From Cyanidioschyzon merolae (Eukaryota): a stretch of DNA of 64,000 nt. Of the stretch, positions 1-45,378 are shown piece after piece. The stretch's first letter is position 1. Every line of letters begins with the position of its first letter. The notes beneath the pieces are model-generated. The model saw nothing but the letters and a program-made list of their open reading frames with translations, ran no database searches and was not told the origin of the DNA. The stretch lies in assembly GCA_000091205.1 (NCBI GenBank), contig AP006502.2; one strand, given 5' to 3'. The translations under genes were made by a program, and so were the position numbers.

Positions 1-3000
1 CATCGTACTCCGTGGGTGCTGGCCCACTACTGTCAACAGTCGCTTCAACATCATAAGCGTGGCTGCCGTTTCCCTGGAACAGATCTCGAACCGAGGCCCA
101 ACTGAAGTTTGGAACCGTGAGCGAGCTTTGAAGAGCGTACCACGGCGGCTCGCTAATTTCTGAGCTCGGCTCGCTGAAGGAGATAGAGCCCATCATACCC
201 CGGGTGCACTGCCCCTGCTGGAGCAAGTGTCGGAAGAGGTCGCGCTTCGAAAAAAGAACGGCTGTTCTGGTGCGAATCGCTGGCAGCATGTCCAACATGT
301 ACCAAAATGGACCGCTTCCATTCTAGTTGTAGCGCTGGTGCACCCTTGTTGCACCACAGATACTGTTTGTGAAGCATTGAGAAATATTCCAGTGGAAATA
401 TTTGACGCATTTGCGTAACTTGGCACTAGAATCACTTTGTAAATGTTTGTATTTTGGCAAACTGTCTTTCGGAGTATTGCGATTGATCACCTGATGTCGC
501 TGCCGCCAGCATATCGGAAGCGCTCGGCCCGGGCTGGTAAAGCGCTGTCTTGAGCCGTCCATTGCTTCCAGGCGGTACTAGGAAGTGCTCTGTCTTGATG
601 AACGGTCATCGAGCAGACGTCTACTTAGAGAGCCTGGTCGGTTTACCCCGCAGGCTCTGCTCATGGAATCGAGTTAAAGGTCTCTTCGACGCCTGATGCC
701 GTCTCGCTCTTTGGAGGGCAAAGAGCGACAACGCAGTGGACGCGGTGTACGTTGTTTTTCCCTAGCCGAGACCCCCACTCGCTATCTCCAGGCTTGTAGC
801 AGTGGCTTGAATCCACCGGGTCTACCACAGTTTTCACATACACGGCGCCCCGCGGTACGACATTACTGCCGCATACCCTCCTGAGTGAGGCGTGTGTAGA
901 AGTATAGCGCGAGTGGATCCAGAGATCGCTGTTTCCACATATCTGGACCCCGGGAATCACGATAAAACGCTTTCGCACCGGAGTAGTGGTGCGCTTGCGT
1001 CCGTGAAGAGACGCACCAGGGTGCCGAACCCACACCACATGCCGCGGGATAGACGATTCTCACTAATCTTTACAAATGGAACACTCAGGATTTCTCATAA
1101 CTTGAAAACGGATGAGCGTGCACCAAGCATCTTCACTAATCCGAATCAAGGACTGCAGGCCTGCATTGCTGCACTCAGTCACGTGTTAAAGGGATTCCTT
1201 CTGGACGGCTTCCTGGGCACTGGGCACGCGACATTCTTCGGAAATACGCTTTTGAATCTCTACATCGTTGGAAATGTCTTGGACGAGAAGCATATCGTGC
1301 GTATCATCGGGGGCAAGGCGAGGCAAGAGACGCTCCTGCAAAAGAGGCGCGTTCGAGGCGAATTCACCAGCGGACACATAGCTGTGGTGCCGGCTGCTTG
1401 CCCATAGAAATCCCTCGGGCTGATCAGATGGCGGACGATGCCAGCATGCGCTGCCGCTGAGCGCCCGCCCCCCGCTACATACGATGGATCTGTAACGCTA
1501 CGCGTCGTCATGCTGCATGACATGTTTATCCTGCTGTTGCGAACCTAAATTCCGTGAATGCTACTCGTGCAGTAGTACTTTTCAAAACCATTGGCTGTTT
1601 CAGGCTATCTAACCACCACCTTGTGACCAGGATATTCGTGTCACGCTCTTTTCACAACCAGATTCAATCCAATTTTGCTGTGGTGCGCTATGGGCATGTG
1701 TCCGGTTCCTTTCACCAGCGATCCATATCGTGGCACAGTGTCCCAGATGTTGTGCTGCTCGCTTGGATTGCACTGTGTTGAACCTTACACCGAAGCTCAC
1801 CAGTGTGCAATACCGAGCGAGCAGCTCGTTCGGCAATATGCGCGCAGCGCACACTGTTCCTTTCCGTTCTTTCCGAACCCTGACTCCGTTGTGCATACTT
1901 CTTCTTCATTCAGTGCCAGGAATACTGAACTCCTCCAGAGCGCCTTATTCCAGCGTGTTTCGTAGACACGTACTTGCTGCCGACAACTCCGAGCTACACA
2001 CTGAGCTGTAATCCAGAAGATTGTCGATCACGCACTTGGCGGCGCTTACCACTTCGCCTCCACACCGCTTGACTGCGTCAACAACACTCAAAGTAACGTT
2101 CACAGGTATTCCGGCGGCAAGCTCTAGACAGTCAGGCAACACAGTCGTCAGATCTGTGTTGCACTGCGATAGGGTTGGCATGGCAGCCTCAGTGTGCCAC
2201 GCCAGGAGACTCAAACCGAGTATCGTTAAAAAAAGCAGAACATACGGATGAGCGGAACGCATGAGTTTCGTATGGCGGTACCAAGTGACTGCTACCTTAA
2301 AAGCAAAATATAGTTGTCTCGGAGATATAGACGTGTCTCGATCCCGAGCACAGAGCACAGCGGCTCCATCACGATCGCGTTTTGTGGACCTCGTTGATGC
2401 AAAATCGACACAACGAGCTGCACAGCGTATCGAGTGCTGGCTGAAACACGTCCGTGTCGCGACGGTCTTGGCGGCCGCGATGTACTGTCCGTCAAGGGCA
2501 GACAGGTCGCAAATTGTTCGACGCTACGTGATTGATGTACGGAATCGGGTGCTGCGGCGTTCGTGATATCCATCGATACGCAGGTATGTGACGACCGCTA
2601 TCCCTTAAATCTGGAAATAACCCATAAACCCAAAACCATTATTTTCGTCGGGAATAAGTGTGCGATCCATGCGATAAGTGTTGCTCTCCGGTGGTGTCTC
2701 TTTGTCAGGTGATGCGCACGGAAGCGAGGCCCTTGCACCGCGAAGTCGTCGTACGTTTGGCGAGAAGTCGAAGGTAAGCACCAAGGTTTCGGTGGTAATG
2801 TTTCGAGGATATTCGATGTTCTCGAAGATTTTTTTCGAAGTTTGCGTATGTGCCGTCTACGCTCCGGGATGCGTGCTTCATTCTGTAGGAGAAATCATGT
2901 TTGCACGTGAAGGCTGGGCTGCTCCAGATCACCTCGTATTTCCATGGACCGCTCGAGGCTACAGATGCAGTTGCGAGCGATACGTTCTTTTCCCTAGTCC

Positions 3001-4951
3001 TAGTGGGGTAAAATCAATCGCGGTACCGACGCAGAAAAGAGTCGGTCTCTCATGCACGCGCGACGTGTGATGGATAACTGCGACAGAGCGCTGCATATGC
3101 TGAGCTGCTCGTTAACTGACGCTTGCTGTTGGGAACAGTTTCATGGTGGCATGAGTTCCGTTCCTCAAGGAAGAGTTTGATGTGCTGTATCATGGTCAAG
3201 ACCCGAGAAATTCGTACGTGTTGATCCAGAGCTTTATGCCAGCTCCATGGAATTCACGTCTCCGAGTATGCGATGATTGAGCTCCCGAGCCGATGGGAAA
3301 CGAGGCTGAACGACTCGAGCATGCGGGTTGATCCGGCTTAAAAGCGCACACTTAAAATTGGGCGCACGGCAAAGGACAATACCATACACGCCGTCAGCAG
3401 CGCTATTCAAGCAAGAGAAATCCAACTGCTCTGTGACACAGCCGTCTGGCCCCGGAGCTATTTACGCCGGCAAGCGGATACCACACAGATGCGCTGGCGG
3501 CACTGTCCGATGCATCCATGAGGATATGAGTACTCCAAACGAAAGCATGGACGTTGGAACGGGAGCCTTGCAACCAGAACAAGAAACGAGAGCCCGGTTT
3601 GGTCGCTGCAGTTGTTTGCAGTTGAAGAAAGGTCTGCAGTGAGGCGGCGGACTTTAGAAGCACAGGGATCTGTAAAATACTTGACCAGTCAATGTACGTT
3701 GTAGCGTCCGGCAAACGCGATACGCGAAGCCCGCCAGGAAAAAGGATAACACTGCAGATACACCGTACTGCGATATCGTATCCATCACAGCGAATCCGAG
3801 AGTCCAATCAGGCAGGGTCCCGTTTCCGCGGGAAACGCCGCGCAAGATATCAAGAACGCCGTGCAGACGACGTGATCAGGGCAGATACGTACACCGAAGC
3901 GTGGCTGCCAGCCATGCGCTCTTGGAGGCATCAGCAGTGTGCTCAAGTAGTCGTGACGCATGTCTTGGCTTCGAAATAAGTTCTGGGATTATCAAGTTGC
4001 GTGGATATGTATCCATTGAAATCTTGAAGTGAAATGCGGCATTCCGTTAGGGTACACAACGCCAAAATAAGCGTTCAAAGCGCACGCGGGTGTCCTGAGA
4101 GGCACGGTAGATGGCCCCGCCGTCGTGTCCTCGCACCACTGCAGCAGACGAGGCCGCTTTATTGGGAACACGGTGCCTAGCGTGATCCAGGCTGTTTTAT
4201 GCAAGAGAACATACCTGGTCAACCTGCCTCTGATTCGCTTCAGGAAACCGTCAGACTTGGCAGCATCAGGCTAGTGCGCGCGCCACGTGACTGCTGGTGT
4301 GGTAACCAGCAGCGCTAGTCTCTGCTCCGTTTCCAATTTTATACAGTGCGAACTTCTGCCTTCCTGGATGCGGATCAGCAGCTGTTTCCTTCCACATGAA
4401 ACTTAAGCGGCCAGATCAGAAAAGCATTTCATCGGTTATCAGCACCTTTATACGGAGTTTAGGGGTTCCCGTCTATGCTACCGTCGAAAAAATCATCATT
4501 TGCTGCACCGCCACGTTTTTTCAAAGTGCCCCCAAAACAAAGCTCCGACTAGCGCAGCTCCGTTTCACTCGCGTGCATCGCTGGACACGTCCGCTACGTG
4601 AGGCACCACGCAAACCTTGCTGCACCTCAGCATAGCGGAACAAAAGCTTTGACTTCAAACTCGACTGGTGCGCGCAGAAACAGTACGGACATTATGCCTT
4701 CGTCGACGATGTGCGCAGGCCAGCAACTAGACCAATACGCGTGCGCCCCAAACGGATCCAGCTGCGAAATGTATAATACTATATATTCACGAATATAAAT
4801 GTACTTTTCTTGACACATCCGCGGCGAGCACGGCGCGTGGCGTCGCGCACCGACTCCTCATCGTTTGTCCTAACGCTGGTAGACGAGTCTACAGTTCCGG
4901 GTATACGCGCTTTGCGAGCGTATTCCACGAGTGAGTCGCGTAGCGCCAAAG

Positions 4952-5353
4952 ATGGGTCGCGTTCGTACCAAGACGGTTAAAAAGTCAGCGCGCGTTATCA
5001 TCGAGAAGTATTACTCGAGGCTATCCGCGAATGATTTTCACACAAACAAGCGCGTGTGCGACGAGGTCGCCATCCTGCCCTCGAAAAGGATGCGGAACAA
5101 GGTAGCTGGCTTCATCACCCATTTGATGAAAAGAATCCAACGGGGTCCAGTGCGAGGAATCTCACTCAAGCTTCAAGAAGAGGAGCGAGAGCGGCGCATG
5201 GACTTTGTGCCCGACGTGAGCGCCGTGAACACGGAAACCATTGAGGTCGACCCGGACACGAAAGCAATGCTTCGGTCCATTGGGCTTGGCTCTATGTCTG
5301 GTGTTGTCGTGATCCAGCCAGGCGAGCGGCGCCCGTACCATACTAGGAAGTGA
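4952..5353 (+). CDS. RPS17: 40S ribosomal protein eS17 (RPS17), intronless. The true start is the internal ATG ([11 protein letters not shown]...); the 4931 GTG extension in the ORF track is spurious.
   Basis: Near-universal eS17 N-terminus [11 protein letters not shown], and HTNKR and [26 protein letters not shown] blocks; length ~133 aa typical. Confidence 0.9.
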
Positions 5354-6060
5354 TGTGCCCATAGATAGTACTGGCGCGCCAACCAAACCAACCAGCACTT
5401 CATCGGGACAGCGAGCGGTACCAGGCGAGTGCGTCAGTATGTGACGCACCAGGCACTAGATGCACCCCGCTTGGTTGCACGCGGACGTTATTCGCCACGG
5501 TAAGTAGAGTTTGGGTTGGTATGCGTGCATGGCACAGTGTTTTGCATATTTGGTCCAGCGTGCACTTTCGTTGTGTGCCCATGGCGATCTCTCAGCTAGC
5601 GACCGAGTTCGTCATAAATACTCTTGATGCGCATCAACCGCTTTCCATTCCCCTGCACCAATCATCCGAACTCGCCTTGCAGTCAGCGATCAACACCAAG
5701 CTCTTCAGGATTGGTGCGCGCTGCTCCAGAAACATTCGCGTACAGGCATGCTGAAATATTATGAGTCCGTCGTTTCACCCCAATTTCTCATGCATGACTT
5801 TATCAGAATTTGATGCTCATTATAAACGAGGCCGGGAATATCGTAACTTTTTGTCTCTCCTCGAGACTTTTGATATGTGAGGCTGGAGAGCCTTTTTCGC
5901 TCTGGGACATGTTTTTCATTTTCTGTCACGCGACGAAAAAGTGTAGGTCGTTGACTCCTCTCATTCTGGCCTACAGCAGCGCCAGAATAACGCAGCACCC
6001 GTCTTCGTTGTCGTCACAATTCTATGTGGTGCCTCGACATGGCCAGCCTGCCCTGCCCCC

Positions 6061-6224
6061 GCATCTGACACGCTTGCAGTGCAGCACTTTGTGGACCCGA
6101 GCAAGATACGACCTCCGTTCTTTTACTTTCGTGGCTTCCCCTGCATCTGACACACTTGCAGTGCAGCACTTTGTGGACCCGAGCAAGATACGACCTCCTT
6201 TCTTTTACTTTCGTCGCTTCATTG
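6061..6224. repeat. Tandem duplication, 82-bp unit x2, ~96% identical.
   Basis: gcatctgacac(g/a)cttgcagtgcagcactttgtggacccgagcaagatacgacctcc... begins at 6061 and again at 6143; read through by ORF 5810..6412 as a repeated peptide. Confidence 0.8.
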
Positions 6225-9159
6225 GCGATGACCCCGTCGTCATTCCATTCAAGTTCTTGAGGCGAATTCCGCAACACGAGCACGTCCACGACATCCGGGA
6301 TTCAGTGATGCCCACCACATCCACATCTAGAATTTCCCTCAACTTCTGTTTGATCGCTCTCCATGCACCGAGCGTACGACGGGATATCGGACGCTTAACT
6401 CCCTCACCCTAGTTTCCGAACTCACTCCATGACCGTCTTTTTGCCACTTGGCACAAGAAGGAGGTGCAGACCCCCTGGATTGCTTTCGGTTCGAAGAAAA
6501 CGTAAATAAAGGTCCTATCCAGGAACGGAAGCGCGTTTGTGGCCTCGTCTGACGTCCAATCTTTGAAAATCTCGTACATACGTGCTCTCAGTGTCTATAA
6601 AAACGGAAAGAAACAAGCATGTGAACTGGGTCAATATTCGCAAGATAGAATCTTAAGCATGTGGAAGTTCGCAAGCGCGTTCGCTACGCCTTGCAGCAAG
6701 TTGGCCTGGAAGACTCAACAAGCGAGACGACGGATTGCATTCTTTCTCGATTACGATCTCGTATGAAGGAGTTCTGCTACAATTTGAGAATGTGAACTTT
6801 TCCTTGGGTTACTTGTGCCCGTTTGTCGTCGTTTGTCTCCCCGGTGGAGTCGGGCGGCACATTTCTTCTGTATACCAGAGGATGTGTTGCACGTGTCCCG
6901 ACGGAATCGTTTTTTCCAGATGAAACGCACCTCCAAACGCTAATCTGGTCGAGAGACCCCAAGATTCCAGATAAGTTTTTCGTTGTTGTAGAGGACGTTT
7001 TCCAGTTTTCAATGCGTGGTATTTGATGCGTCTTGCGTCGACGCGTTTGCGTACATCACGCCGATGGAGTGCATGTCTATAGACCGACGTGCAGACGTCT
7101 CCCCGTCTTTTTGGACCAGCCACCTACTACTGGTTTCAACTCCTTCCCGTACAGTTCGACCCTGAGGGGTTGCCCCATAAAGCTGGATCGCGTCAGTCCC
7201 AGGGGTCTTCTTTGCAGCACCGCATATCAACTGACATTGATGGCGGCTTTGAAGTCTCGGTTCACAAATTCCATGCGTTTCTTGCTGGCGCCGCTGCTTG
7301 TACTCACCAGTGTAAATCATCCTCGAAGTCGTGGCGTCAGTGCTACACCAGTATCGTCGTCGCCGTCCCGTCGGGCAAACACCATTACTGGACTATCCCC
7401 CTACTTCGTCTTCGCCACTTGCTCTTTTCCGCTCGATGGTCGGCGAAAAGGGGAATTTTTCGTTTCCTTTCCGGGAGCCGGCGATGATGGCCCTTCAGGA
7501 TCCCCGACTTTCATATCCATACCTTTTCCTTGGGGTTTATCTCTTCAAATGAACGCACTTCGAACGCGTCTGCTATAAACCGCGAATAAGCATTTGGTGA
7601 CGCACATCTGGATGTGAATCACAATCGAGATGAAATCCATAGCATTGAACTCCTGTGCCATCGGAGCACCGCGAATGTCTGGCACGCGAGGCGCCCAGGG
7701 GACTGAGGTCCGTCCGCCCTACACCAGGGTTGCTGACCCGAACGCTGCGTACCGGAACCGCGAAGGAGCTTGCCAACTCCTTAGTCAATAGTTTGGTTGG
7801 GTTGTATTGGCGTACGCCATATTCGCCTGACTGCGTTGCAAGGTAGCGTAACTGCTTTTGAAACGGAGCTAGCCCTGGTCCATGGTTCGAACGTTGCGGG
7901 CGTGATGCGCGGCCCCATGCCCCGGAGGTTTGCCATTGAGGGCTTCAAGTTCTCGCTCAATTTGATCGTACCGTTTTGCGCTGTTGTGTTCTTTGGTTCC
8001 AGCGATCACTCCTGGCTCGAGCAAGCTGTCGAGCGGTGGCGCTACGTCCAGTATCCCGTCAACGAAGAGTCAACGCTGACCTCCGCTGAAATCACAAGAA
8101 GGGTGTTTAAACAGCCGAAAACCGGGGCAGCTGAGGACCATCGAAAGTGAGCGAGTCTCGCGAAAGGGCGCCGCCCTTGCGCCTTCCGGAAGACACCCGT
8201 CTGGTCACTCCCGATGAGGTTCTGCAATGTTGCTGACGATCTCAACAGCAGGATGCGTGGATGGAAGCGTGGGCTTGCATGCTCGTCGATACCTGAAATC
8301 GAAGAATACCCAGGCCTGCGCAGATAACAGCATCGGTTCAGAAGCCAAAGTCGCAGTCTCCAAAAGCAGATAAGAAATGACCTCGGAACGGCCGGCTGTC
8401 AGACACAGGCACCAGCCACCGCATATCGAAGAAGCTCGCTGGCCTCTATTAGACATCGTCATCTTACCCGAACGCTCACATCATTCCTTGTGAAAAAGCC
8501 ATGGACAACGTAACGCCGAGATCGAGGCCTCTGTGCTGCATAATGCTTGCAACGAGCACGTTGGTAATGTCTGGTGTCAGCGATTTCTCCCAAGCGCCAC
8601 AAGAGATAAACGATTGTATCTCAAGAGCTCACATATAGGGAACGGCTTGCCTCGTTCAGCGCTCGCTTCGAAATATTTTTAGCCCTGTCTGCGAGGCGAC
8701 AACGCGTATCGTAATGCAGATTTTTCTCTTCGACAGAACCTTGGCACAACCTAGCTATCCCCGATCGCAGCGCCTGTTCGCAGCGCACAGGGAAGCATCA
8801 ATCGTTCCACCTGCTTCCAAATTCCACAAGCCGTGCTTTCCCCCGAAGGAACCAGTAATTTTTACGCCATATCGTGCGCCGAGTGCATGCTGTGAACACC
8901 AGCCGTAGCGCCTAAACCGCTGGAGCAGGTGCATCACGGAGACGGAACTGCTCAGGCGCACCACTGAATGCGGTGCAACCAGGGCCACCAGCAGACGCTG
9001 CCTAAGCATCATTAGTCCCGGAATAAACCGCTTTGAAGACGAGTAGAGCAGGTCTCGCAACAGCACCTGCCACTGGGGGGATGGGTATGAAGCACGAGCC
9101 TGGGAGACTCGTCCGGCTCGCTGGACATTCCCTCGAGAATGTAAAGTTTCAGCAATACG

Positions 9160-11770
9160 GAAACCTTTCCCCTTTTTGACGTTTATCGTAAATGGGGAAC
9201 GAAATTGTTATATCGTTGCAATTAAGTCGTGAGTCTCTGTTCTTTTTCCTATAGTGCGATCGATAGGCGCACCTGGGATATCTGGCAGTCTCGAGACACG
9301 ACGCTCACGTCACCGTTGAAGGGGAACGCGATCCTGATCGTTATTATGTTGCTCTAATGTACGAGTAGTAGTTACTTTATAATCGTACCAAATTATAGTT
9401 TTTCAGGTCTATTGTGTTTCAGCCCTCAGGTTAGTATACTCAAGTGTTTTTTCGCGGTTTATGACAGAAGCGTTCAAAAAGCGTTCTTGTTCAAGAAACT
9501 AGAAAAGCAAAGTTATGGAAGAGGAAATGGAGGAGCATGAGGGCACAGCGTCGCCGGCTGCCAGAAAAAAACGGAAAGCATGGCGGAGCAAAGAGGAACA
9601 GGAAAAGACGAAGACGCGGAGGCCGGAGGCCCTACGTCGAAGGCAGCGATAAAGACGACAGTACGACGAGACGGCGGTAAAAGCCTGTCTTCTTACGCAT
9701 ATCAAGGATCCGTACAGGAGAAACCTGCGAGATGCCATCAGAAACCGAGTCGATTCGTACTCCAGGAGTGTTCGTAACGCCTCTTCAGGACTAATGCATT
9801 TGGTGAAGGAGATGTATCGCGACGTGGTGGATTCGAAACCTTCGAGATTACGGAGGAATTTTTCAACATGACCTTTATTCGCCACCTGATGGTTGGCAGA
9901 GGGGAAGCGTCGAAGAAAATGAGCGAGTGGAAGCCCTCCACAAAAAATTACGCCAAATGCCGCGTCGACGCTACTCTATACAAGGTTGATGCGGATATTT
10001 ACACCTACGGTGCGATGAAGAACCATTTGACCATGAACCTCAAACGCTTCATGATACGCGCCGTGTTTGCGCTCTACCCGGGCCTGTCTCGTAGAGGAAT
10101 ATGGACCATCGCCAATTGCATCACAAACGATAGTAAGAATGAACGGGGATCGAATTCGTCGACAAGATGACATCACACGGGAGAAAGAATAAAGATTCCT
10201 TCATCCGCGCGGCTATTCAAGAGCACCGTTCGGTCTTGGGGCTTGTCAACCCAGCAGAAAAGGTATCAGATATGAAAAAAAGATGGAGAAAGATGTTATC
10301 TCCTCATGCTGCGCTATTTCGTGTTTTTGACCGACGCCTCGAACGCAAAACAGAGATGGAGGTAGGTGCGGGACACAAAAGCAGAGTTGGAGCAACGGAA
10401 GGCTACCCTTCAGGCGAAGCGCTTCAACGTCTTTCGGTTATGCAACATCAAGTCGCACTTTGTGAATATCGACTGCAGAGTCGTTCATGGCATCATGAAG
10501 GATATCTGAACGGTGCTCGGTGTAAGCAGGGAGGAGTTCACCGGGGAAAACCGGGAGACGTACTGGAAGCATATCTTCGGCTTCAAACGTGTCAAAACGA
10601 GCAAGCAAAAGTATGCATAGGCATCAGCGAAAGCGATGGAGTAGCCACATGTGTACACTATCAGCGCCTTAGGGTGAATCGTCCTGTTCCGTCTTCAGTA
10701 TCGCCAGTGGCGAAGCATGAGGGAAACAAGAAGGCGGGTCCTACGACGCAGGAGGTGCGGGAGCATGACTTTGTGGTAGGCGCGAACCCCGGAAACACGA
10801 ATATCATGACCATCACAGTACCCAAGCTTGCGGAAGATGGTATTGAAGGCAACCTATGTCAAAAAGACACGCGTTTGTAAGGTTCTAAAGATAGAGACAT
10901 TACTGAGAATCGGGAATAATGAATGCAAGAAAGAAAATTGAGACATGGAATGCACGAGTGAGAGAGCACCTGGAAGCTATGAGCGAGGTGACGAGCCGAG
11001 GAACGGACTTTGGAGCTTTTCGGGAGTTTATGGATGTTCGTGTTGCCCATTGGGATGCACTGTGGGAGGAGTATACCAAGCCCCGGTGGGCTCGTCTGCG
11101 AAAGAATTTCTATTGTGGGAAGCAGCGGGCGTTCGCGAATTTTTTCAATCAGTTGAGTGCCCCGAAGGGGGACGAGAGTCAGAGGCTCGTAGTAGCGTAC
11201 AGAGCAGGGCGCTGGAAGATTCAAAAAGGGTGTACGCCAGCTCCAACGACGAGGGTGTACAAGGAGTGCGCACGTCGTTTCGTTACAATACCGATAGATG
11301 AGTTTCGAACATCGTATACACACCATGAGCTGGGTTGTACACTTCAGAGAGTGGAGATGCAAAAGTGCCAGAGGAGCCCTGAGGATATAGCAAAGTACGG
11401 AGCGCTGACGGAAGAGCAAATGGAAAGGAAGGCGAAAGTTCGAGGGCTACTCGCATCAGTGAATACAACGAACGGGAAGAAACGGATGGAATTCGTGAAC
11501 CGAGACTTTCATACCCCTATCAATATCAGGAGATGTGCAGTGCTGGAGAAAAGACCTCCAGAGTTGACGAGAGCCAACTTTGTTCGACAACCTCTCGAAG
11601 TCGATTTATATGAGAAGAAGTTGGAAGCAGTAGTAGGTGGCCGGTCGAGAAAAACGGGGAGGCGTCTGCACGTCAATTGGCGACTTTTTGTCTAGGGCGG
11701 GTTTCTCGCCACTACTGTACACCGCGGGTATCAACGTTTTTCTTCTGAAAGGCGTTTGTTTTCAGGAGTG
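9160..11770 (+). mobile_element. Compositionally distinct island carrying a Fanzor/TnpB-like gene relic; putative eukaryotic IS605/IS607-type element remnant. Boundaries are approximate.
   Basis: GC drops to ~40% in 9160-9520 and ~48% across the ORFs, against ~57-60% in flanking host genes; contains a RuvC-like TnpB/Fanzor homolog; no clear terminal repeats found. Confidence 0.4.
9515..11695 (+). pseudogene. Fanzor/TnpB-like (OrfB_IS605 superfamily, RuvC-like) gene, disrupted. N-terminal K/R-rich NLS-like region at 9515-9649 ends at an in-frame TAA, then the reading frame changes near ~9860, ~10150 and ~10900.
   Basis: ORFs 9868..10170, 10167..10880 and 10919..11695 are consecutive in different frames. 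The TnpB-like RuvC-I block reads VVGANPGNTNIMTI where GxDxG is expected. A YKECARRF..IDEFRTSYT..C block corresponds to the TnpB YK..G..vv.VdP.yTSq.C block. A RuvC-III-like NRDFHTPINI is at ~11498-11527. The N-terminus reads MEEEMEEHEGTASPAARKKRKAWRSKEEQEKTKTRRPEALRRRQR. Confidence 0.55.
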
Positions 11771-11771
11771 G

Positions 11772-13799
11772 ATGTCTTCCAGCAACACTGGGGTTCGTGT
11801 GCCCGCAGCCGCAAGTGACGTAGAAAGCACGGACACCGGCTATGAGCAGGATGAGGAGCAACTACCGAACCAGCAAGATAGTGAAGCAACGGATCCGGAA
11901 GTTCAGTTTGATGGCGGTACCGATTGGCTGAACTCTTCAGAGGCGGAACCAGTGGAGCTGTCGCGAGCGTATTCTGCTCCAGAGCCGCTGGATGAAGGGC
12001 CCAAACCGAACTTACTGGATATTTCATCTGCGTGGGGTCAAGACTTTGTAGAGCGAGCTGATTCCGAGCTCGAGAGCTACGCCGAGGAGCACCCAGGCCC
12101 TGAAGAACACGGAGCGTCGCAGCAAGAGAGACAACGTTCCAGGTCGTATCTGAGAGCGCTACGAGCGAAGATGGACCGTACCTGGCGTGCAGACTGGACA
12201 CATCGCCTGGGACGCACACTTGACGGCACGGTGGACAGAGCCCGGCCCTACTGGCGCCACCTACGAAGCTCGAGCGGCCTTCGACGTCGGGTGCTTTCTC
12301 GTTCGCCGTCGATGCTCCTTCAGAACCTGAACCACAGCCGCAAAATCATCGCTCGCAAGTCCGTGGAAGCAGCTTCTGAAGCTGCCGAGTTTATATCGTC
12401 ACCAACGCTACTATTCCGACCTGCCAAGATGGCGTTCGCTATTGCGTTCCCTCTGCTCATACCGCTGTTAATCACCCCGTGGCGGATTCTGTTGATCCTC
12501 TTCGTTTTTTACGCCGTCTGGTATCTTGTGGTCGCCGCGATTTTCGCAACAGAGGTGATGATGCGCCCGCCCTGGTACCGAGTTGGACTAGGTGGGCAAC
12601 TGCCGATGGTGGAGATCCCTCCGTACTGGCGCGGCGTTTGCCACAATCCGAAGCAGGATCTCCAGTTGGACTACGTTTCGGTTTCGTTTGAGTCTTTGCA
12701 TCCGCCTCGGCGGACACTGCGCGGCTGGTATATCCCCGCGGAAAGCACTGGAATGACTTTCGAGTCTGGGTCCGAACAGTCAGCCCCTGAAACGGGTGCA
12801 GCAAAACCCAGCGAGGCGAGCAGCGCAGACGCACCGAATCCACATGCAACAACACCGTCTGGTGAGCACGCGACGACGAGTCGCAGCCGAGGCACAACTT
12901 CGACGGGTCGGACCTGTGTAGTCTGTGTGCACGGGGCAGGTCGAGATCGCCGAAACTTCCTGCGCCACGCTGGCGCACTCCACCGCCACGGTTATGATGT
13001 GTTGCTGTTCGACCTCAGCGAGCATGGTCTCAGTGACGGGTCTGGTCGAGGAACCACTTTTGGTGCTCGAGAAAAATATGATGTGCTGGCGGCTATAGCG
13101 TATGCCTACAATGCCCTGCAAGCGGAGCGAATCGTTCTTCTGGGGACTTCAGCGGGAGCCTCTTCCTGCCTGCTCGCAGCAGCTGAATGGATCCGTTTGC
13201 ATCGATTCCTGAAACTGCAAATCGTCGGGCAGCGGCACGAATCATCGCAAGCGCTTAGTGAACAGCATTCTCTTGATTTCCCGGTACAGTGCATCATTGC
13301 AGAGAACCCGCTGGCCCGACCTGACGAACTCTTTATCTTCCATCTGGAGCGCCTCTCGCTCAACTACCTGCCAAAAGATTCGTATCATCTTGCGCGGAAG
13401 ACACTCTTCTGGTTTGCAAGCAGAGTGCTGCTGTTTCGTCTCGCATGGGTAGACCGCGAACCGAGCGCCGTACCAGGGTCTCATTTGCGCCGGCTCTGGG
13501 TAGTGATCAGCACCCTCAGTCGAGTGCTCGGAGGACGGACGCGCTGCGGCGCAGTCGACGTCATGACCGACATTCATTGTCCGTTGTTCGTTTTGCACGG
13601 CACCGGTGATGAAATCGTGCCCGTCGACCATGGCATGCGCATCTTCGCAGCGGCTAACGAGCCCCGTCAGCTGTGGCTCGCTCCGGACGCGGCACACTGT
13701 GCCCTGTTCGATCAGTATCCAACTGAGTGGGAAAATCGGGTTGTGGATTTTATCGAAAAGAGCCTGAGCGAAGAGTCGAATGCGAAATCAAGATCCTGA
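11772..13799 (+). CDS. Membrane-anchored alpha/beta-hydrolase-fold protein with acidic disordered N-terminus, transmembrane segment and C-terminal esterase/lipase-like hydrolase domain.
   Basis: HGAGRDRRNF...GYDVLLFDLSEHGLSDG matches the HG..fD.rGhG.S pattern, GTSAG is a nucleophile elbow, and VLHGTGDEIVP and AAHCAL fit the Asp and His sites. Hydrophobic stretch AFAIAFPLLIPLLITPWRILLILFVFYAVWYLVVAAIF. Start taken at the internal ATG 11772 because the 11637 start overlaps the upstream ORF. Confidence 0.7.
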   Translation: MSSSNTGVRVPAAASDVESTDTGYEQDEEQLPNQQDSEATDPEVQFDGGTDWLNSSEAEPVELSRAYSAPEPLDEGPKPNLLDISSAWGQDFVERADSELESYAEEHPGPEEHGASQQERQRSRSYLRALRAKMDRTWRADWTHRLGRTLDGTVDRARPYWRHLRSSSGLRRRVLSRSPSMLLQNLNHSRKIIARKSVEAASEAAEFISSPTLLFRPAKMAFAIAFPLLIPLLITPWRILLILFVFYAVWYLVVAAIFATEVMMRPPWYRVGLGGQLPMVEIPPYWRGVCHNPKQDLQLDYVSVSFESLHPPRRTLRGWYIPAESTGMTFESGSEQSAPETGAAKPSEASSADAPNPHATTPSGEHATTSRSRGTTSTGRTCVVCVHGAGRDRRNFLRHAGALHRHGYDVLLFDLSEHGLSDGSGRGTTFGAREKYDVLAAIAYAYNALQAERIVLLGTSAGASSCLLAAAEWIRLHRFLKLQIVGQRHESSQALSEQHSLDFPVQCIIAENPLARPDELFIFHLERLSLNYLPKDSYHLARKTLFWFASRVLLFRLAWVDREPSAVPGSHLRRLWVVISTLSRVLGGRTRCGAVDVMTDIHCPLFVLHGTGDEIVPVDHGMRIFAAANEPRQLWLAPDAAHCALFDQYPTEWENRVVDFIEKSLSEESNAKSRS

Positions 13800-16547
13800 T
13801 TCGGCCCTATGCAGTGCAATTGCTTGACAAATGCGAACGCTTCAGCTGAGCGAAGGACGCTTGCACCCGGCAGATACGCAAGGGCCGCACCACAGACCCC
13901 GGCAAGCGCCTCGTGCCGCAGGCCCGTGCTGCGACACCGACGAGGTACTGGGAATCTTTCGAAAAGGCTCGTGCGTGACGAGCTATGCGACGCTGTACCG
14001 TTCTGAACAGAGGGCAGCACGAATCCAGGGATATTGGCGGGAATGCCGCGTTTTGTGCACGTGCAAGCCGTCATGCTTGCGTGCACTCGCACAGAGACAA
14101 CACCATTGATCATCGACGTTGTCGTCGGTGGTCGCTTCCGGTCACATCAATAGAATCCACTCGAATTTCAATACGCTTGAATGCTTCGTGGTCCGGAATC
14201 GCTCCGACATTGTCGCCGAGAACCTCGTACACCAGGAATCAGAGCCGAAGCTTGTCAGTCGACTCACGAAGCAACGAATTAGTTTCCCGCTTGGCGATGA
14301 TCGTGGACAATATTCCAGAGTGCAGCGCGTTGCTGGGGCAGCTCTTAACAAACAAAGCACATCCAGCAAAGCTACTTGAGCGGATGCAGCACAATTCTCG
14401 GGTCCGATGCAGCGCCCGGAGCATGCACCACCGTCCACGGGCAGGCACCTGTTAACACTATCGCCCAGAGCCTGCATGCACTTCACAGGCGCTTTGCCGG
14501 TTTCCACGAGTCGAAGCTCATGCAATGCCAGGCATCAGGAGTACGTGGTGGCGACAACAGCTGCCTTGCGTCCCATTCGCCAGGGTCGTATCAGGGGCTG
14601 TGGCCGACGCTTCGTTCCAGCGCCTGGGCTCGTGTGCCATCTGCTGCCACAGCTGAGCTGTCGTGCGTGTGCTCAGAGTCACTGGGCACGATGCTTAGAT
14701 GTAGACAACGATACATTTGGTTCCGCACATCCACACAGTCGCACTGCGTTTCCCAAAGCGGATGACGCACATCCATGCCACTGGTCGCAGTCTGCGCACG
14801 AACAGAACAATCAGTAGTTATGGTGCCGGTGCCAGCGTCCGCAACCTGATGTCTATCACACGTACGGCTTGTTGTAGGCAGTGCAGGCATGTTGCCACAT
14901 GAGGATTCGTACCCGTTTCTTGGATGGGCAGAAAGCGAGCGTGAACGGGGCATCCCCGAATGCACGTCTGGGATCAACGACCGGGAAATCGTCCAGCATT
15001 CCGCGCACTATCTACCTCGAACTTCCACTACCCGTACTTGCCCTCGAAGATACTGGTCATTTCGTATGTTTCATCGTTCGTCGAGTCTACCTTGAGCGTC
15101 CGTCATAGCGTCAATGCGAACGCAGCTCGGAAACCGACCGGTTTTGCTTGCATCCGCGGGAGAGCGCACTATCGTCGCCAACGGTGTGCGAAGTTGCCTC
15201 GCGACTATTTCACTACCGCGGACAAGCACTTCATTCGACACGAAAGTGTAGACATTCTGTGGATCATGGCGACTGCTGCGGGTCGCTTCATGCGGTCGCA
15301 TGTGCTACTAGCTCCGTTTGGCGCACCGGAGCTCCAGGGCATCGGGTGTGAGAATCTGTGCAAGTTCGCATAAAGAGTTGGAACGTATTGCCACAGCGTG
15401 CTGTAGAATTTGCGACTACAGCGGTTCCGGCTTCGTGAGGCATTCCAGAAGCTGCTCGTGCCGCACGAACGCGATGTCAGCGTTATCGCTTCTAGCGCAG
15501 AGCACCTGCGACTACCACGCACGGAACCGAACTCCAGGTTCAGTAGAAACAACAGTTACAGTCAAAGGGACACGGACCGTTCAGACCTTCCGGTTGATCC
15601 GTGGCCAGCTCCTCCAGGCTAAAGACTCGATAGCCTTCCTCGGTTCGCGCTGATCGCGTTCGTGAAACTGGCGATGCTGCGTCCACACGCGAGTGTCTCC
15701 TGGGCAGCTGCTTCGTATCCTGCTTCGTCAGCGTTCTTTGGACTCCGATACGACCATCTTTCTTGGGAGTGTTGCCGAAGCGACGGAGGCTCCGTTCCGG
15801 CTTTCGATTGCCTTGGCTGCTTCGCGAACGTTGAGCAGCCGCGTTTCGCGTCAACTTTTTTGATGACTCGCGAGCGCGTTCGAACAATTCATCGAGCTGT
15901 TGTTGATCCTCTTGTGGTGGCCTGGAAACTGCAGGAGCTAGCCCCTGCTTCATCACAGCAAGCTTGGTGCGGGATCCGAACGTAGAAGCGCCCCAAACGA
16001 AAACAACGATACAGCAGTGACGGCGACTACAACCGTTGTACGGCAAGGCGCCAGGCTTAGCGTAGCGCGTTGCAAGCCGACGACAGCATTGTACGACGTT
16101 ACGACAAGCTGATCATCAATGCCCACAAGGAACACGTTGCTCTGGACTCTATTGTATTGGAATTAGGCTCGTGCTGGATATCGCGTATGAAAAGCGCGGG
16201 TTCAGGGGAGCTTCGATGCGCAGCAGTTTCCGTCTTTGCTGTACAGATCCCCTGGAGAAAAAACTTGTTCAACGCTGGTACATGCGACCTCCTTTTGCTA
16301 ACGCGGCGTTCTGCTTTACCCATTCTTACAGTTCAGCATGTTCCTGTACCAGAGTTCCAGCTTGCAATCGACCGCGCAACGTGGGTCGGCTGCTTCATCC
16401 CAATAACGATGCAGAACACGCGGTACTTGCGAATGCTGCAACGCGCTAACCCTCACGTTCCTGTCATAGATGCGTATGCGCTGCTGGTGGCACCGCAGTA
16501 CGGCGTCTCGTCCAGGTCATGAAGTGAATGTGCAGAAGAAATGGCGC

Positions 16548-17390: not shown

Positions 17391-19962
17391 GGCGCAAGTG
17401 CACAGCGCACTGCGTCGCCGCTGGTGACAAACGCACCAGCTGGGTGTATGTCCAGGAGACGTTGCCAGCGTCTCAACTGGTGGTTTCGAGTGTGGTATGC
17501 GATCAGCGAAAACGAACAAACGTTACACTCGGATGCGCAACGCGTTCCGAGAAGCCGAAAGAGACCTCAGTCGCTCCGGATACGATTCTGGATAAAGAAA
17601 ATCTCAGAGCACGATTGCTCAGGAGAATACGGAAATGTCGGAATAAGAAATGGAACCGGTTCTCCAACATAGCATGACACACGCTTATTATTGGGTCGCT
17701 TTCCGTTGTTTTCAACGCAACGCTTTACAGGATGATTGCATGTACGCTTCGTTTTGCGACCTCTTATACCCTGTTTCAAATACACTGGAGTCTCCTTTGT
17801 CTCCAGCGCCGATGTCAGCAGGCGAGGCATGTTGAAGGCTGCGTTATCGCCCCCATTTGCGAGCACTGAGCTCTTGGCAACGGGGTTCATACACAGACGG
17901 TAGTTACGATCGACGCCTCGATTAGCATTTTCATCTCGTTTGTACACAGCCGCAATACGCTATTCGCAACGGTGACACTCAACTGCGGTCAGGTGTTCCG
18001 CGATGCGTCCACCATGCATACTCCTACGAGAGTCGCCCTAGTGCGCGTGAATGCTTGCCTCAACGCTCGGTGCATGCCCTTGACTGTACGAGGAGGCTGC
18101 TCTCGATGGCTTTTTTCCATTGGCGGGCTGTGTGCCGTACCCTACAATCAGGGGCTACTTTCAGGCGATACCCTCGACGAGTACTGTGTCCGCTGCACGC
18201 GCAAACGCATGCTGCTCTATTCGATAGGGGATTGGTGGTGGAACGCGATGGTGTCCATGATGAGACAAATACCAGATGGAAAATTCTAGGTTGGTGATCA
18301 AGTCGTGAAACTTTGATCCGTGTAGGCTCTTTTCATGCAAAGCGATGACGCAAATTGCTCTGGAGGCGGTCGTTGCAATGAATCAATTCCGAGTCCGAGT
18401 CTTTTTTCCATGGAAATGAAAGAGACGAGAGCCCCCGGGGAGCATGCCCCATTAAGAATATATAATGGTGGTGGAGAATCCTTTTTTATGGATGCACACA
18501 CAGAGAGAAAGATTCGTCGTTCCTACGAAACAGATAACTTGACTTGACGAGTTCAACGATCTTGAGGCACGAGCTTGTGAACAAGCCCTCAAGGGACGAC
18601 ATCTAGTTTTTGTCCTCGTTAATCTAGTGGCGCAAGTGCTGCGTCAAGGGCCTGTTTTGAAATAGACGCATTGAAAAATTGAAGGACGCGTGACCTGAGC
18701 ATCCTACACGTACGTTTATATGAAAAGCGGAGTCTTGTACTTGCGGGTAATGTGACGATATCGCTTATTTTGCGAGTCCTGGTGCAAGGGCGTCGCTTAT
18801 GATCTTGACTCCCGTCCTATGACGAATTCCATCGGCACGGTGTCGAAAAAGTCGCACCGAAAATACAACCAAGAATCTCAAAACTCCCTATGAATCGATA
18901 AACCCTATTCTCTATCGTCTGAATGCCCAAGCTATACATCTAAGAAAAAGGTTTGGAAAACATCGAAAACCGGAATTAGAGCAAGCAGTTCCGTGCTCTG
19001 TTTTCATCTAAAAGGAATGTAGACGCTAAAGGTAAACATCATAACGCGTGTACCCAATTTTTGACGCAACACATTCCTGTTGTTGCATCCGAGCCCACTT
19101 GTCGTTTACTGTCGCCAAATGGAACAGATGCTGAACGCTTCAAACGCTCGCGAGAAACCATACCCCCGGTCGTGGGCTATCACAGATGCGGCTACGACCC
19201 GATTTCAACATATGCCCAAAAACGTACTGCTTCCAAAAGACTGTCCAACTGGATGAGGTTTCGAAAGGTTTTGTGGCATCTCGAAGAACTCGAAGAGTCG
19301 CGCACGTGCCAACTACTTTTTGTTCTCCACTGTAGTCGCTAGTGCGACTCCACCAGATATTCTTGTTGCATGCATGCATGCATGCGAGATTAGTCCAAAG
19401 TTCAAGCGCGCGTTGCGCTTTTCACGATGCCAATACGATAGCACAGAGATCGCATCCAAAGACAGATTCATATCAAAGGGTTGGAGAATTCTTCATATAC
19501 CGTTTCATAAACGTTCGTCACACATGCAAACTAACAAAGCGCAAAAACTCGACATGATACGATTTTTTACAAAGTACAACACTTGGATCCAGTCGCACTT
19601 CTCGCTACCAAGCACAAATTGCGATCGGATATATCTTTTCAAGAACTGCATTTTATGGGCGCATCATGTCCAGATCGTCTACGGGTTCGAGTCGCCTCGA
19701 AATGCCACCAGCGCTGACCACTATGCGGTACAGCTCATGAGGCTCAGGTCGCGGGGTGCGCTACATATGCAGCCATTCCCTGAATGGATGGTTCGAGGTA
19801 CGAATCCGGATGTTCCCGTTCGTACAAAGGTAGCCCTGGCAGCGTTCAGGGTGTGTCTCCTAGGAGCCTGCTGCCACATTGGGCGACTTAATCACTGCCT
19901 AACTCGCATGGGTAGTTGCACCGACGATCTTGTCGAAAAGCATCAGCGTCATTCCATGCAAC

Positions 19963-36595: not shown

Positions 36596-37399
36596 AGCGA
36601 CCAGATGCGACTGTATTAGGTGGCTGTTTACAGAGCGGGCCTCTGCGAGGTTTCGGTCAGGCAGGGTGATCCGTCGTGCACGGAGGCGTTGTGACAAACC
36701 TCAGTGCTTTCGAAGCATGGACTGCGCCACATGATGGTCGCGCTTTTCGAACAGCGCTTGGCGAGCTTGACGAAGCTCGTGCCCCCAGCGTCGCTTTGCT
36801 GCGTTTGACAATCAGGGCAATGCCTGGTACAATGGGGCATCGTTTGCATGTGGTTCGCATGAAAGTCGACGTTGCGACGGGGACGGCGAGACCCTCGCTG
36901 CGACGCCGGTGTCAGATAAACGTGGAACTCTGAACTGCTGGCCGTGTTCCTGCTTTGACATTTTTTGCGACTGTTTTCCATACGTTCAGTCTCAAGTTGC
37001 AAAGGGCAGCAATAAGGGCTTGAGGATCCAATCGTTGTCCCAGGATTCGCAGTTGTCCTGTCGGTGTGGCGCCTTCAAATATCTCCCGTTGGAATTCGTT
37101 ACTCTACGGTTATCAAGATAATTTGCGACGCCCCCGAAGAAGCGTTTCACAACACAACCAACATCACGCTCCAATGCTTACGTACAAGCCGCCGCTCTGC
37201 TCTTATCCTTATGAGAAACGTGATCAATTCATGCATGCTTCTTGCTCCCGATCTCATCATTTCAGGGTAACACTCGGGCGCAGCAATTCGCCCTGCCGGA
37301 TTGACAAGCGAAACCAGACGACCTTAAATGAGGACCTTTTCACCAGCTCATTCCGAGAGCTGGCTGAACGTGTCATGTCAACGAATCGATTTACTCCGA

Positions 37400-37700
37400 A
37401 AGACAAATCTGCCTGTCCATGTGTGTATCGACGAAATGGCATTCGACAAACTCATGTTACGTTGTAGGGAATATACTCGAAGAGACTCTCGTCTCCTCTG
37501 CTTGCATGAAAAAAAGACTTGGACTCGGACATGAGTCCTCGCAGCGAGCGCCTCACTTCTAGAGTGCGTCACAGCTTTGTACGCAGTAATCGTAGACGAA
37601 TCGAATTTTCACTGGTTGTTCTCCAGCCTGCGTTTCCCTTGCGGTACTTGTGCCATCATGGACAATGATGCCATCCACATTTCGACCATCGAATGGAGCA
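37400..37700. repeat. Diverged (~70%) third member of the dispersed repeat family, copy C, carrying the conserved GGACTCGGACATGAGTC motif and flanked by a (TG)n microsatellite at 37716-37731.
   Basis: catcgacgaaatggcattcgac... and ...ttggactcggacatgagtc...agagtgcgtc...cgtagacg blocks are shared with copy B (30990-31150). Confidence 0.6.
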
Positions 37701-39238
37701 GCGTGCACCTATGTGTGTGTGTGTGTTCGTGCATCGTACAGCGCGCTCGCCGAAACGCTCGCCCAGAAGAAACCCCTGATCGCAGGGTACAGGAAACCGC
37801 TTGGAAACGGAGGAGAGCATTGAGTGGTTCCTTCTGTATCGGCCAAGGGCATCTGTCGAGCGACGAAGCGAGCGTTCACGCTACCCAAAGCGGTTCTCCG
37901 AAAACGGAGTGTCATGGACGTTTGAGAATACCTCACCACAGCCAAGTGGCACCACTGTGAACTGCGCACTGAGCCTGTATACAAGGAGGATAGGAGTAGC
38001 GAGCGGAGCGCAGGTGCAGCTTCCGCCCTGGCGTGAAATACGAACAAGACGGCCAAAAGTGCCACGGCTGGACTTTATCGCCGCGATGAACTCCCGTCGA
38101 CGGCTGACAATGAACCCGGAGAGAATTGTACGGCCGACGGTTGCAACGCAGGATACAACAGGTCACAAAAGGAAGCATGCACATAAAAATACCGCCATGG
38201 CTGCTGTGCGCAGCAACGAAAAAAGACCCAAACTTTCCACGCGAGCTCGCTGCCCGGTCCCATTTTGTTCCTCGTACGGGTGTTGCGCGGCGCGTTCCGC
38301 ATGCAAGGCCGCCGTTCCTTCGAAGCAGATCGAGCGAAATCTGGTAGGCGGACAGCACATGTCGCGGGCCTCTGACGTGTCCCCGCTCTGATCCTGATGA
38401 GCGTTTCGCTCGATCGCCTCAGATGTTCCAATCGAATGTCGTGGCAGCCTACAGCGCGGCGATCGTGGCGCGCACGGCGAAACGTTTCGTCCACAAATAG
38501 AACCGTAGTTTCACCTGAATTATGTTCCACCACCAGACGCGTGTCCTCAAACGCTTTTCGCGGTTTATAACAGATACGTCTGAAGTGCGTTCATTTGATA
38601 CAATATAAAATCTGAAGGATCGTTATGGACATGGAAGACGGGGATTCTGGATGGTGGTTGTCATCGCCGAGTTCGACCAGGAAATCAAAAAAATCCTCTT
38701 CTCGCCGACTATCGAGTGACCAGGGGTATGTGATGAAGAAATTGGAGAGAAAGGCGAGAAAAGGTGCCTGCCCGACGTGACGATGACGGGACTTCCGTGA
38801 TTCAGAGGGCGCGAGTTCGACGACTGCGTCTAAAGGTGCGTTCTGGCAGTGACAGGGAACGCACAGAGTTCGTGCACCCAGACTTTAACGCAGCGATGAA
38901 TACCAGGTGATATGAGGTATTGCACACGCGACCCGACGAGCAGAGACGATCCACCAGCTTTGTCGGGCAGCCTTTCGGAGTCGAAGTGTGCAAGGAGAAG
39001 CTGAACCCGATACAGCACGGGGGCCCGTCGAGACAACCAGGAAGGCGTCTGCAGTTGCGAGTCATATCGACCCTCTGTGGTCGTGAAACGTTTTTCGTTT
39101 TATCGGACAGTGAGAACCGGACACGTGTCCGCGTGCGATCGCAAGCGACTGGCGTCGCATCGTTTTGCGATACGCTTGCCAGAATCTTTTCGAATTCTTG
39201 TTCTAAACGCGTGCATTATTGTGCGTTACAGGGATACA

Positions 39239-43137: not shown

Positions 43138-45378
43138 TCACTGGAACAGCTCCGCCGCCTGTACCACGTCGGCAAGTACCAGCTGTGCAATTTCGATACT
43201 AGACATTGCTTCGCCACGAAAACAGGTCCGATGCCATTGACCACTCTGCTTCCATTTAACCACTATCCTGAAATCCGACACTGCACCTTCGCCGAGCCAG
43301 GACAGTTTGCGGTCGACTTGGGCTAGCCCCACCTGCATCGATGCGTTTGTCGGGCCACGAATGACGACGCTCTGGCTCTCAGATGATTGCGCTTCACGAC
43401 CAGATGTTTGAGGCGCTTCCTGAAAGACGTTGACAAAACGAATCAGATGGTTATCGGGGCACTCGAGGCCATGCGCGTTCGTTTCTTTGGGATCGTGCGT
43501 ACCCGTGAACCGGACTAGAAACTGAAGAACGGTTTCGTTGGTCCGTGCCTGTTCGAACAGGCTCTCGTACAAACTGTCCAAGGATGAAATACCATCGGGG
43601 CTATCCATAAAGTTCCGGGATGTCATAAAACGGTGAAATGACGAGACATTGGTGGCGTCTGTGGGATACGTCTCCGCGTGCCCAGGCGGGGGAAGAAAAG
43701 TTGCCGGTTCCTGTTCGAATAGAGAACGACATCCCACGAAGGGCGAGTCTCGCAGTCGGTGTTCTACGCAATCGAGGTCGCATCCCGTCATGCTCTGACG
43801 TGATTCATCGTAGAGAGGTTGTATACACACACGTGCATCACGGACCAGGTTCAGATCAGTGAAACCGAGAGCACGCGCGCAGACCATCGCTCGAGTGGCA
43901 CAGAGAATGCCGGAGAGCTCCTCGCGGCAGTCCCAGGTCTCGAGATGCCCAGCGGAGCGCGATTCCCGCACAGCAGCGGAAAACGAAAGGCCGCGTTCCA
44001 TTCGCTCAAGAACGTGCCCGATCCCCGGGCTCATGACGGCTTCGAAGCACACCAGGTTTGGCTTCATCTTCGACAAATACTTGAGAAACGCCAGCAATGG
44101 AATATCTGCACCAATGGCTGCATTACTGTGAACCGCGGGATGACGCAGAAGGAATCCGGAGGCTTGCACTGCAAACTGCCTGTTCAAGTTAGTGACTTGC
44201 GGATCTTGATCCGGATACAAGCGATTGATGCGCTCGAGCAGGCCCATTCCAGTCTCGTCAGCGGTTTGCTCTTCGTGTGGCGCCGCAAAGCAAACAGCGT
44301 TCGCTGAAACAATGCGCACTTTTGGATAGAATTGTCTGACCAAGGCAAGCAGCGCTCCCGCATGCGCTGCTTGACTCGTGTCCACGACAACTACGCCATC
44401 GAGACACGGCACCTGCGCAGCGCCGACTGCCGGTCGCACGTACGCAGGGCCAGATGATGAGAGCCTGCCAGTCGCAGCCGTTGACGCCAGCATCGATCGC
44501 AGCGCTGCCCACAAGCTTGTCGTATGCTCGTCTCCGGTATCGCGCGCTGATGTATATGTGAATTCCGCGCCTTCGTGCCAAAGCTTGTTGATGTCATGGA
44601 CAGTGGCAATAGGTTGCCAGTGAGTCGGACCGAAGGATATCCCCACAAGCTCTAGGACTATCCTTTCATCTTCGTAGAAGACGGCCGGCACCGCAGCTGT
44701 TTCGCAAACGTCGACCGCAGCAACTGAGCGGCCGCTTTGAGTGTCCCATGCTGCTTGTGCAGCCAATGTCTTCAGCATGAGACCGACAAACGCAGGTCCA
44801 ACAGTGCCTCCGGCAAGCAGGACAACGCCAACCTTTTTCTTCGCTCGTGCAGGCTCGAGCCACTGGTCTGCTTCGACTACTCTGGACAGATCGCAATCCT
44901 TCGGCGCCGCGCATATCGAGAGCGTCAAGTGGGCCAAGCGCTCGGCAAGGCTTTGCAGCAGGGCCCCGCGCTCAAAAAGCTGCTTTGCCGATGAAGCAAT
45001 CGAGCTAGAGCGCAAACCCTGCCCTACTTTGAAAGTTCGTTCCTTGGGTGGCTGTTCCAAGTCGCACGGCGTCGGTTGAACGCAGTCCTCGGCGAGCGCG
45101 CTAGGCGTTTGCGTCCGCTGCTCTTGGCTGATCCGTTGCGTCTCCAGTCCAGAACTGTCAGGAAGCGTTTCGAACCGTTCTCCCCGAGAACGAAAACGTG
45201 GCTCCTGAAGGTTTGGACCGGTCTGGACGCTCGTGAGAAGGCCCCGCAGTGTGTGGGATAGGAGGTCCGGGCCGCCTTCCAGCTGTTGCAGAAGTTTTTC
45301 GATCCCTTGACGAACTTCAGCGAGCCAGGACTCCAGATCAGGAGCAGACCCAGAGACCGAGGATGCATGGGCGTCCAT
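43138..45378 (-). CDS. Hypothetical conserved-looking protein, 746 aa, no confident family assignment.
   Basis: Long ORF with host composition; Gly-rich loop KKVGVVLLAGGTVGPAF and several Cys/His-containing blocks, but no motif I can name with confidence. Confidence 0.5.
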   Translation of the reverse strand: MDAHASSVSGSAPDLESWLAEVRQGIEKLLQQLEGGPDLLSHTLRGLLTSVQTGPNLQEPRFRSRGERFETLPDSSGLETQRISQEQRTQTPSALAEDCVQPTPCDLEQPPKERTFKVGQGLRSSSIASSAKQLFERGALLQSLAERLAHLTLSICAAPKDCDLSRVVEADQWLEPARAKKKVGVVLLAGGTVGPAFVGLMLKTLAAQAAWDTQSGRSVAAVDVCETAAVPAVFYEDERIVLELVGISFGPTHWQPIATVHDINKLWHEGAEFTYTSARDTGDEHTTSLWAALRSMLASTAATGRLSSSGPAYVRPAVGAAQVPCLDGVVVVDTSQAAHAGALLALVRQFYPKVRIVSANAVCFAAPHEEQTADETGMGLLERINRLYPDQDPQVTNLNRQFAVQASGFLLRHPAVHSNAAIGADIPLLAFLKYLSKMKPNLVCFEAVMSPGIGHVLERMERGLSFSAAVRESRSAGHLETWDCREELSGILCATRAMVCARALGFTDLNLVRDARVCIQPLYDESRQSMTGCDLDCVEHRLRDSPFVGCRSLFEQEPATFLPPPGHAETYPTDATNVSSFHRFMTSRNFMDSPDGISSLDSLYESLFEQARTNETVLQFLVRFTGTHDPKETNAHGLECPDNHLIRFVNVFQEAPQTSGREAQSSESQSVVIRGPTNASMQVGLAQVDRKLSWLGEGAVSDFRIVVKWKQSGQWHRTCFRGEAMSSIEIAQLVLADVVQAAELFQ

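Follow-up and report, generated by a model that had tools for sequence, protein, structure and literature searches.

An ancient, inactivated CMe-1A Fanzor1 copy and its AT-rich, probable promoter leader in Cyanidioschyzon merolae

In a 64,000-nucleotide stretch of Cyanidioschyzon merolae DNA (contig AP006502.2; hereafter, the window), an AT-rich segment at positions 9160-9520 (+) precedes a Fanzor-like coding island, which raises the question of what such a drop in GC content marks. A preliminary description, made from the letters of the sequence, read it as the ORF-free, compositionally foreign left edge of a recent insertion from a virus, transposon or other donor, and proposed that it could represent a transposon end or a promoter. 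The trough itself is borne out by computation. Its GC content is 40.7%, compared with a mean of 0.545 (sd 0.039) for 361-bp windows across the 64 kb, and both an exhaustive 361-bp scan and a sliding GC profile place the minimum of the whole window here; equally low 361-bp windows make up 0.02% of the total, every one of them overlapping this segment. The left flank (8800-9159) has a GC content of 56.1%. The contrast with the neighboring genes had been somewhat overstated, at about 48% for the Fanzor ORFs and about 60% for the hydrolase gene, where 50.3% (9521-11700) and 57.3% are computed. The absence of ORFs was also confirmed, with none of at least 60 aa on either strand inside 9160-9498. 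The second-lowest GC region of the window lies at 18251-19738; within or beside it is a dispersed repeat (17886-18591) with a partner at 37329-37881 (-), the two being about 65% identical and present as well in two metagenomic loci (L041 and L054).

The island is a single degenerate copy of the Fanzor1 transposon family CMe-1A, which was described from the same organism by Bao & Jurka (2013, Mobile DNA 4:12; PMC3627910). When the 3169-bp consensus from Additional file 2 of that study is aligned to the window, it covers positions 8728-11754 over its whole length (consensus 1-3169) at 83.8% identity, with one 120-bp deletion: consensus 1-240 corresponds to 8728-8967, the deletion follows, and consensus 367-3169 corresponds to 8974-11754. 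[quoted passage not shown] The window copy shares the published layout, consisting of a TE-N2_CMe-like 5' module, an AT-rich leader, a single Fanzor1 ORF and a short 3' end without terminal inverted repeats, and differs in being dead and in having lost 120 bp of the 5' module. This module (consensus 1-635) occupies 8728-9244 (+), the lost segment being consensus 246-365, and the Fanzor1 pseudogene runs from an ATG at 9515 (consensus 906) to a stop at 11695 (+).

Within this framework, the AT-rich stretch corresponds to consensus 551-911 and is composite. The TE-N2_CMe-like module ends within it, contributing the first approximately 85 bp (9160-9244), and the remainder (9245-9514, consensus 636-905) is the leader of the Fanzor unit. 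Position 9160 therefore does not stand as the left edge of the element, which starts at 8728, although the stretch does hold the left boundary of the Fanzor unit, at about 9245-9256.

The pseudogene carries 9 single-base frameshifts, an in-frame TAA near 9650, and deletions of 18 bp and 3 bp, and is thus no longer an intact ORF; in a three-frame translation, a TnpB/Fanzor-like protein is spread across three frames. The RuvC-like catalytic D ... E ... RD series is represented in the family consensus by GADPG, DEFRTS and NRDFNAAINI. In the window copy, the RuvC-I motif GADPG has become GANPG (a catalytic D-to-N change) and NRDFNAAINI has become NRDFHTPINI, so that this copy is catalytically dead, although the family retains the full set. 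A protein search found only metagenome relatives, in which GADPGNTNI, DEFRTS and NRDFNAAINI are intact, and a profile search of 1.84 billion representatives yielded 1390 relatives of the family. A 45-member family profile matched solved structures of Fanzor1, a eukaryotic TnpB-like RNA-guided nuclease, from Parasitella (9cf0, E = 1.9e-19), Spizellomyces punctatus (SpuFz1, 8gkh, E = 3e-11) and GtFz1 (9cer, E = 3e-6). PDB sequence searches with the consensus protein alone or with a shallow 17-sequence profile gave no Fanzor match, and Pfam searches with the ORF pieces and intact homologs returned no significant domain, PF07282 appearing only below threshold. An exact look-up of the 746-aa ORF retrieved no record, and an AlphaFold2 model from a shallow alignment was unusable (pLDDT 31). 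In intact members (P0001 and P0003; L001 11224-11376 and its equivalents), the RuvC-I motif is closely preceded on its N-terminal side by 1 to 6 tandem units of about 25 aa, KHEEKKEAxPATQEVxxNDxVV; a single such unit is present in the window copy, at about 10709-10785. A Replitron or other HUH-type element was also considered and set aside; the literature reports none in red algae.

The boundaries of the element were examined by comparing 71 related loci from hot-spring metagenomes. The homology common to all copies begins at about 9245-9256, which coincides with the published 635-bp junction at window position 9244, and upstream of this junction at least four module classes recur among the copies, the TE-N2 module being one of them. 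Among the copies examined, only about one in three has a TE-N2_CMe-like module ahead of its Fanzor unit. With the 635-bp module being just one of four or more alternatives, the part present in every copy begins at consensus position ~636-650, a point absent from Bao & Jurka (2013), and the variation of the upstream modules between copies leaves the true element termini uncertain. On the right, the boundary common to all copies lies at 11754-11756, and the closest subfamily remains alignable to 11770-11771.

Several other pieces of related sequence were noted. Solo TE-N2_CMe-like copies or fragments occur in the window at 59005-59409 (-), corresponding to consensus 19-417, and at 14982-15110 (+), corresponding to consensus 60-185, and a TE-N2 core of about 190 bp (consensus ~84-270) is found in both orientations beside many Fanzor units in the related loci. 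Two repeats of about 500 bp, at 7083-7635 (-) and 38509-39008 (+), are 67% identical to each other and fuse consensus 833-969, comprising the last ~70 nt of the leader and the first ~60 nt of the ORF, to consensus ~2840-3092. These repeats, of which further copies exist in loci L013, L056 and L058, resemble the ORF-less 'ghost' elements of Spizellomyces.

The low GC content of the leader is an inherited property of the family. The consensus leader has a GC content of 0.43 over positions 636-905 and 0.38 over 700-905. For the 200 nt upstream of the ATG, 28 non-redundant copies give a mean of 0.369 (range 0.335-0.455), so that AT-richness characterizes the consensus leader and every one of the 28 copies examined. 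Decay of the window copy was considered as a source of the AT-richness and rejected, as it is matched in the consensus and in every other copy. A GC-richer 5' part, containing the best-conserved block GTTGAAGGGAAACGCGATCC (about 9315-9334), is followed by approximately 200 bp at 37% GC. Across 30 copies, mean pairwise identity is 0.72 in the leader, compared with 0.84, 0.86 and 0.76 at codon positions 1, 2 and 3 and 0.74 in the 3' tail. The leader thus falls just below third codon positions and well below positions 1 and 2, which indicates that most of it drifts near-neutrally; on this pattern, only short blocks of the leader can be functional, whereas purifying selection acts on the protein. 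Two parts of the leader are better preserved, namely GTTGAAGGGAAACGCGATCC close to the 5' boundary and the final ~70 nt. Within the latter, 14 of the 28 copies have the motif TATATAA at -56 to -61 relative to the ATG, most of the others have near variants, and an A-rich tract follows. At the aligned position, the window copy has the degenerate TATA-like motif TTTATGA (9458-9464, +), 57 nt before the ATG. Judged by motif and position, the leader most likely represents the promoter and 5'UTR of the Fanzor gene, and the promoter role proposed in the preliminary description is accordingly plausible. Promoters of host genes in the window have AT-rich patches of a comparable kind.

Taken together, the AT-rich 360 bp are best explained as the 5' noncoding region inside an ancient, inactivated CMe-1A copy, the leader probably serving as promoter and 5'UTR; a probability of roughly three in four is assigned to this reading as a whole. 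The TE-N2_CMe-like module, which stands ahead of the Fanzor unit in the subfamily of the window copy, supplies positions 9160-9244 as its final part; positions 9245-9514 are the leader borne by every copy of the unit, its low GC having come with the family and indicating neither decay of this copy nor a foreign origin. In intact copies, the leader would act as an RNA polymerase II promoter, with a TATA box located approximately 60 nt upstream of the start codon and, downstream of it, a short 5'UTR rich in A, while the GC-richer first ~90 bp may hold a left-end sequence used in mobility. With its TATA box, ORF and catalytic site all damaged, the leader in the window is now presumably inert.

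Giving mobility the leading role is a rather unlikely alternative, in which the leader, and especially the ~90 bp at 9245-9340, would be chiefly a left-end cis element for mobilization, with the AT-rich part a mere spacer. The sharp start of homology at ~9245-9256 across four upstream module classes, the location of the most invariant leader block within 9245-9340, and a short GC palindrome at the boundary, GCGCTC-GGT-GAGCGC in most copies, are all in line with such a role. However, the palindrome is lost in several copies with no compensatory changes, no conserved motif lies 5' of the boundary, and no transposase is known for the family (PMC3627910). A comparison of the left end with the reverse-complemented right end revealed no terminal inverted repeats: the score was 15, where the null mean was 13.9 and 30% of shuffled sequences did at least as well. 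Nor was a left end of the IS200/IS605 type recognized, given that the boundary palindrome is not kept in all copies and that no 5' motif is common to the four upstream classes; a left-end hairpin with covariation was likewise tried and discarded as inconsistent across copies. A left-end function is in any case compatible with the promoter reading.

A recent insertion that brought in compositionally foreign DNA, whether from a virus or from another donor, is a very unlikely explanation of the trough. That an insertion took place is supported by synteny. Five ORFs of the window, including the hydrolase, are identical to C. merolae 10D proteins (BAM83350, 83356, 83357, 83359 and 83367), and the element lies between the gene for ribosomal protein S17e (4952-5354, +), which serves as the upstream syntenic anchor, and the host alpha/beta hydrolase gene BAM83350, annotated as 'unknown hydrolase' (11772-13799, +; ATG at 11772). 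The spacing of these two genes is 6.4 kb in C. merolae, versus 660 bp in a related species (L078, from Logan SRR7903764) and 342 bp in Cyanidium caldarium (L079), and no Fanzor homology was found at the locus in either. The hydrolase of L078 is 62% identical to its ortholog in the window, with a conserved start codon. The insertion is thus specific to one lineage. This finding, the position of the trough as the GC minimum of the window, and the known presence of Fanzor genes in large DNA viruses (PMC3627910) could be read in favor of foreign DNA.

Neither recency nor foreignness withstands closer comparison, however. Divergence of the window copy from the consensus amounts to 16%, and its closest match among the other copies reaches only 76-78% identity; in addition to this divergence, it has accumulated the 9 frameshifts, the in-frame stop and the D-to-N catalytic change described above. 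The same dead copy occupies the same site in hot-spring metagenome contigs that are 99.3-99.6% identical to the window; among these conspecific contigs, all of which carry the copy, no empty site was found. Composition at synonymous sites is host-like: the consensus CDS has a GC3 of 0.614, compared with 0.595 in host genes, and its RSCU correlates with that of host genes at 0.68, a value inside the span of 0.60-0.84 seen for individual host genes. The Fanzor CDS owes its lower total GC to codon positions 1 and 2 (GC1 0.55 versus 0.65 and GC2 0.40 versus 0.48 in the host), reflecting a Lys/Glu-rich protein. Host-like codon usage is what the preliminary description itself had named as evidence against a foreign origin. 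Furthermore, the family is resident in the genome, with its ~150 published copies (PMC3627910). The insertion is therefore an old one, and the leader belongs to a long-established CMe-1A copy.

Some further features of the intergenic region were recorded. A tandem duplication of an ~85-bp unit (6053-6220, 94% identity) is located between the S17e gene and the Fanzor element, and nothing in the related loci compared matches the remainder of 5355-7080 and 7640-8727.

A structured noncoding RNA encoded in the leader, such as a Fanzor guide RNA, is highly improbable. The leader is free of ORFs and alignable in all copies, which speaks for such an RNA; even so, RNAalifold found no consensus structure in it (6 pairs, -2.2 kcal/mol over 355 columns), the leader of the window copy folds no better than shuffled sequences (z = -0.19), and its conservation does not exceed that of third codon positions. 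Rfam, tRNA and telomere-repeat scans of the window returned nothing. Characterized Fanzor1 loci have their guide RNA at the right, 3' end and not on the 5' side (Saito et al. 2023, PMC10432273), and it is at the 3' end that the CMe-1 family has conserved hairpins. In the window copy, the 3' noncoding end (11696-11771, +) contains two of them, a GGCG...CGCC hairpin and a terminal hairpin of 9-11 bp. By analogy with those loci, this end would be the expected site of a putative guide-RNA (omega RNA) scaffold. The terminal hairpin at the 3' boundary forms in three sequence variants with shifted registers, and its covariation in RNAalifold is weak.

Least probable of all is that the trough belongs to the host's own intergenic or promoter DNA and simply happens to lie next to the Fanzor gene. 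Stretches of 150 bp upstream of host genes in the window do similarly drop to 0.34-0.45 GC, as in the divergent promoter at 45378-45940. However, at least 28 non-allelic copies, as well as the published consensus, carry this very sequence ahead of the Fanzor ORF, and the syntenic intergenic regions of the two related species have a GC content of 55-57% and are unrelated in sequence to the leader.

Comparison with known systems places the CMe-1A leader in a broader context. Like CMe-1, Spu-1 of Spizellomyces punctatus, which encodes SpuFz1 (PMC10432273), is a multicopy, single-ORF Fanzor1 element of about 2-2.5 kb that is accompanied by short ORF-less derivatives ('ghost' elements); in both, a noncoding 3' end with a stem-loop, a predicted one in CMe-1, lies beside the flanking DNA, and the proteins are homologous, as indicated by the profile match to 8gkh. 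In contrast to CMe-1, Spu-1 possesses inverted repeats of 30 nt and, on the 5' side of its left end, a conserved CA; the guide RNA of CMe-1 is putative. MCi-2 of Mucor circinelloides (Bao & Jurka 2013, PMC3627910) resembles CMe-1 in having a common Fanzor-coding 3' region, varied 5' regions that recur in subfamilies, and fuzzy 5' ends, whereas its copies are 99% identical and flanked by target-site duplications of 11-12 bp, in contrast to the old CMe-1 copies, in which no duplications were seen.

Two observations concern the arrangement of copies in the related loci. Fanzor units often lie ~700 bp downstream of the right end of another copy in the same orientation (L004, L035 and L057/L069 in class A; L019 and L032 in class B). 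Copies of classes A and B share from 56 to ~820 bp of upstream module, a fuzzy 5' extent resembling that of MCi-2. At the opposite end of the window copy, within 11754-11775, the hydrolase start codon (11772) lies 0-17 nt past the right end of the dead Fanzor element.

A broader proposal is tentative and, as a whole, more doubtful than not by a wide measure: that the mobile or amplifying unit is the 2.5-kb Fanzor unit starting at about 9245-9253 and not the 3.2-kb consensus, that it spread by a one-ended, replicative or homing-type process, and that the 3' end of the window copy was possibly co-opted as promoter or 5'UTR of the hydrolase. Such a mode of spread is hinted at by the existence of at least four upstream modules, the fuzzy 5' extents, and the units located ~700 bp past another right end; if true, it would be a mode not yet worked out for Fanzor1 elements. 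As to the hydrolase, its ancestral upstream region of 342-660 bp has been displaced by more than 6 kb, so that its promoter and 5'UTR may now consist of transposon sequence.

The 2013 publication already covered the family, its copy number, its approximate structure and its assignment to Fanzor1, and it is to be expected that a transposon gene has an AT-rich promoter or leader in front of it; the discovery value of the present identification is accordingly small. Its use lies more in calibration: in this compact genome, a local GC trough flags the probable internal promoter region of a transposon and not a recent transfer, and the lower GC of the Fanzor ORF reflects amino acid composition while its synonymous sites are host-like. 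For Fanzor mobility and for gene regulation in C. merolae, the points of interest are the alternative 5' modules of the family and a host gene that now has transposon sequence for its entire upstream region.
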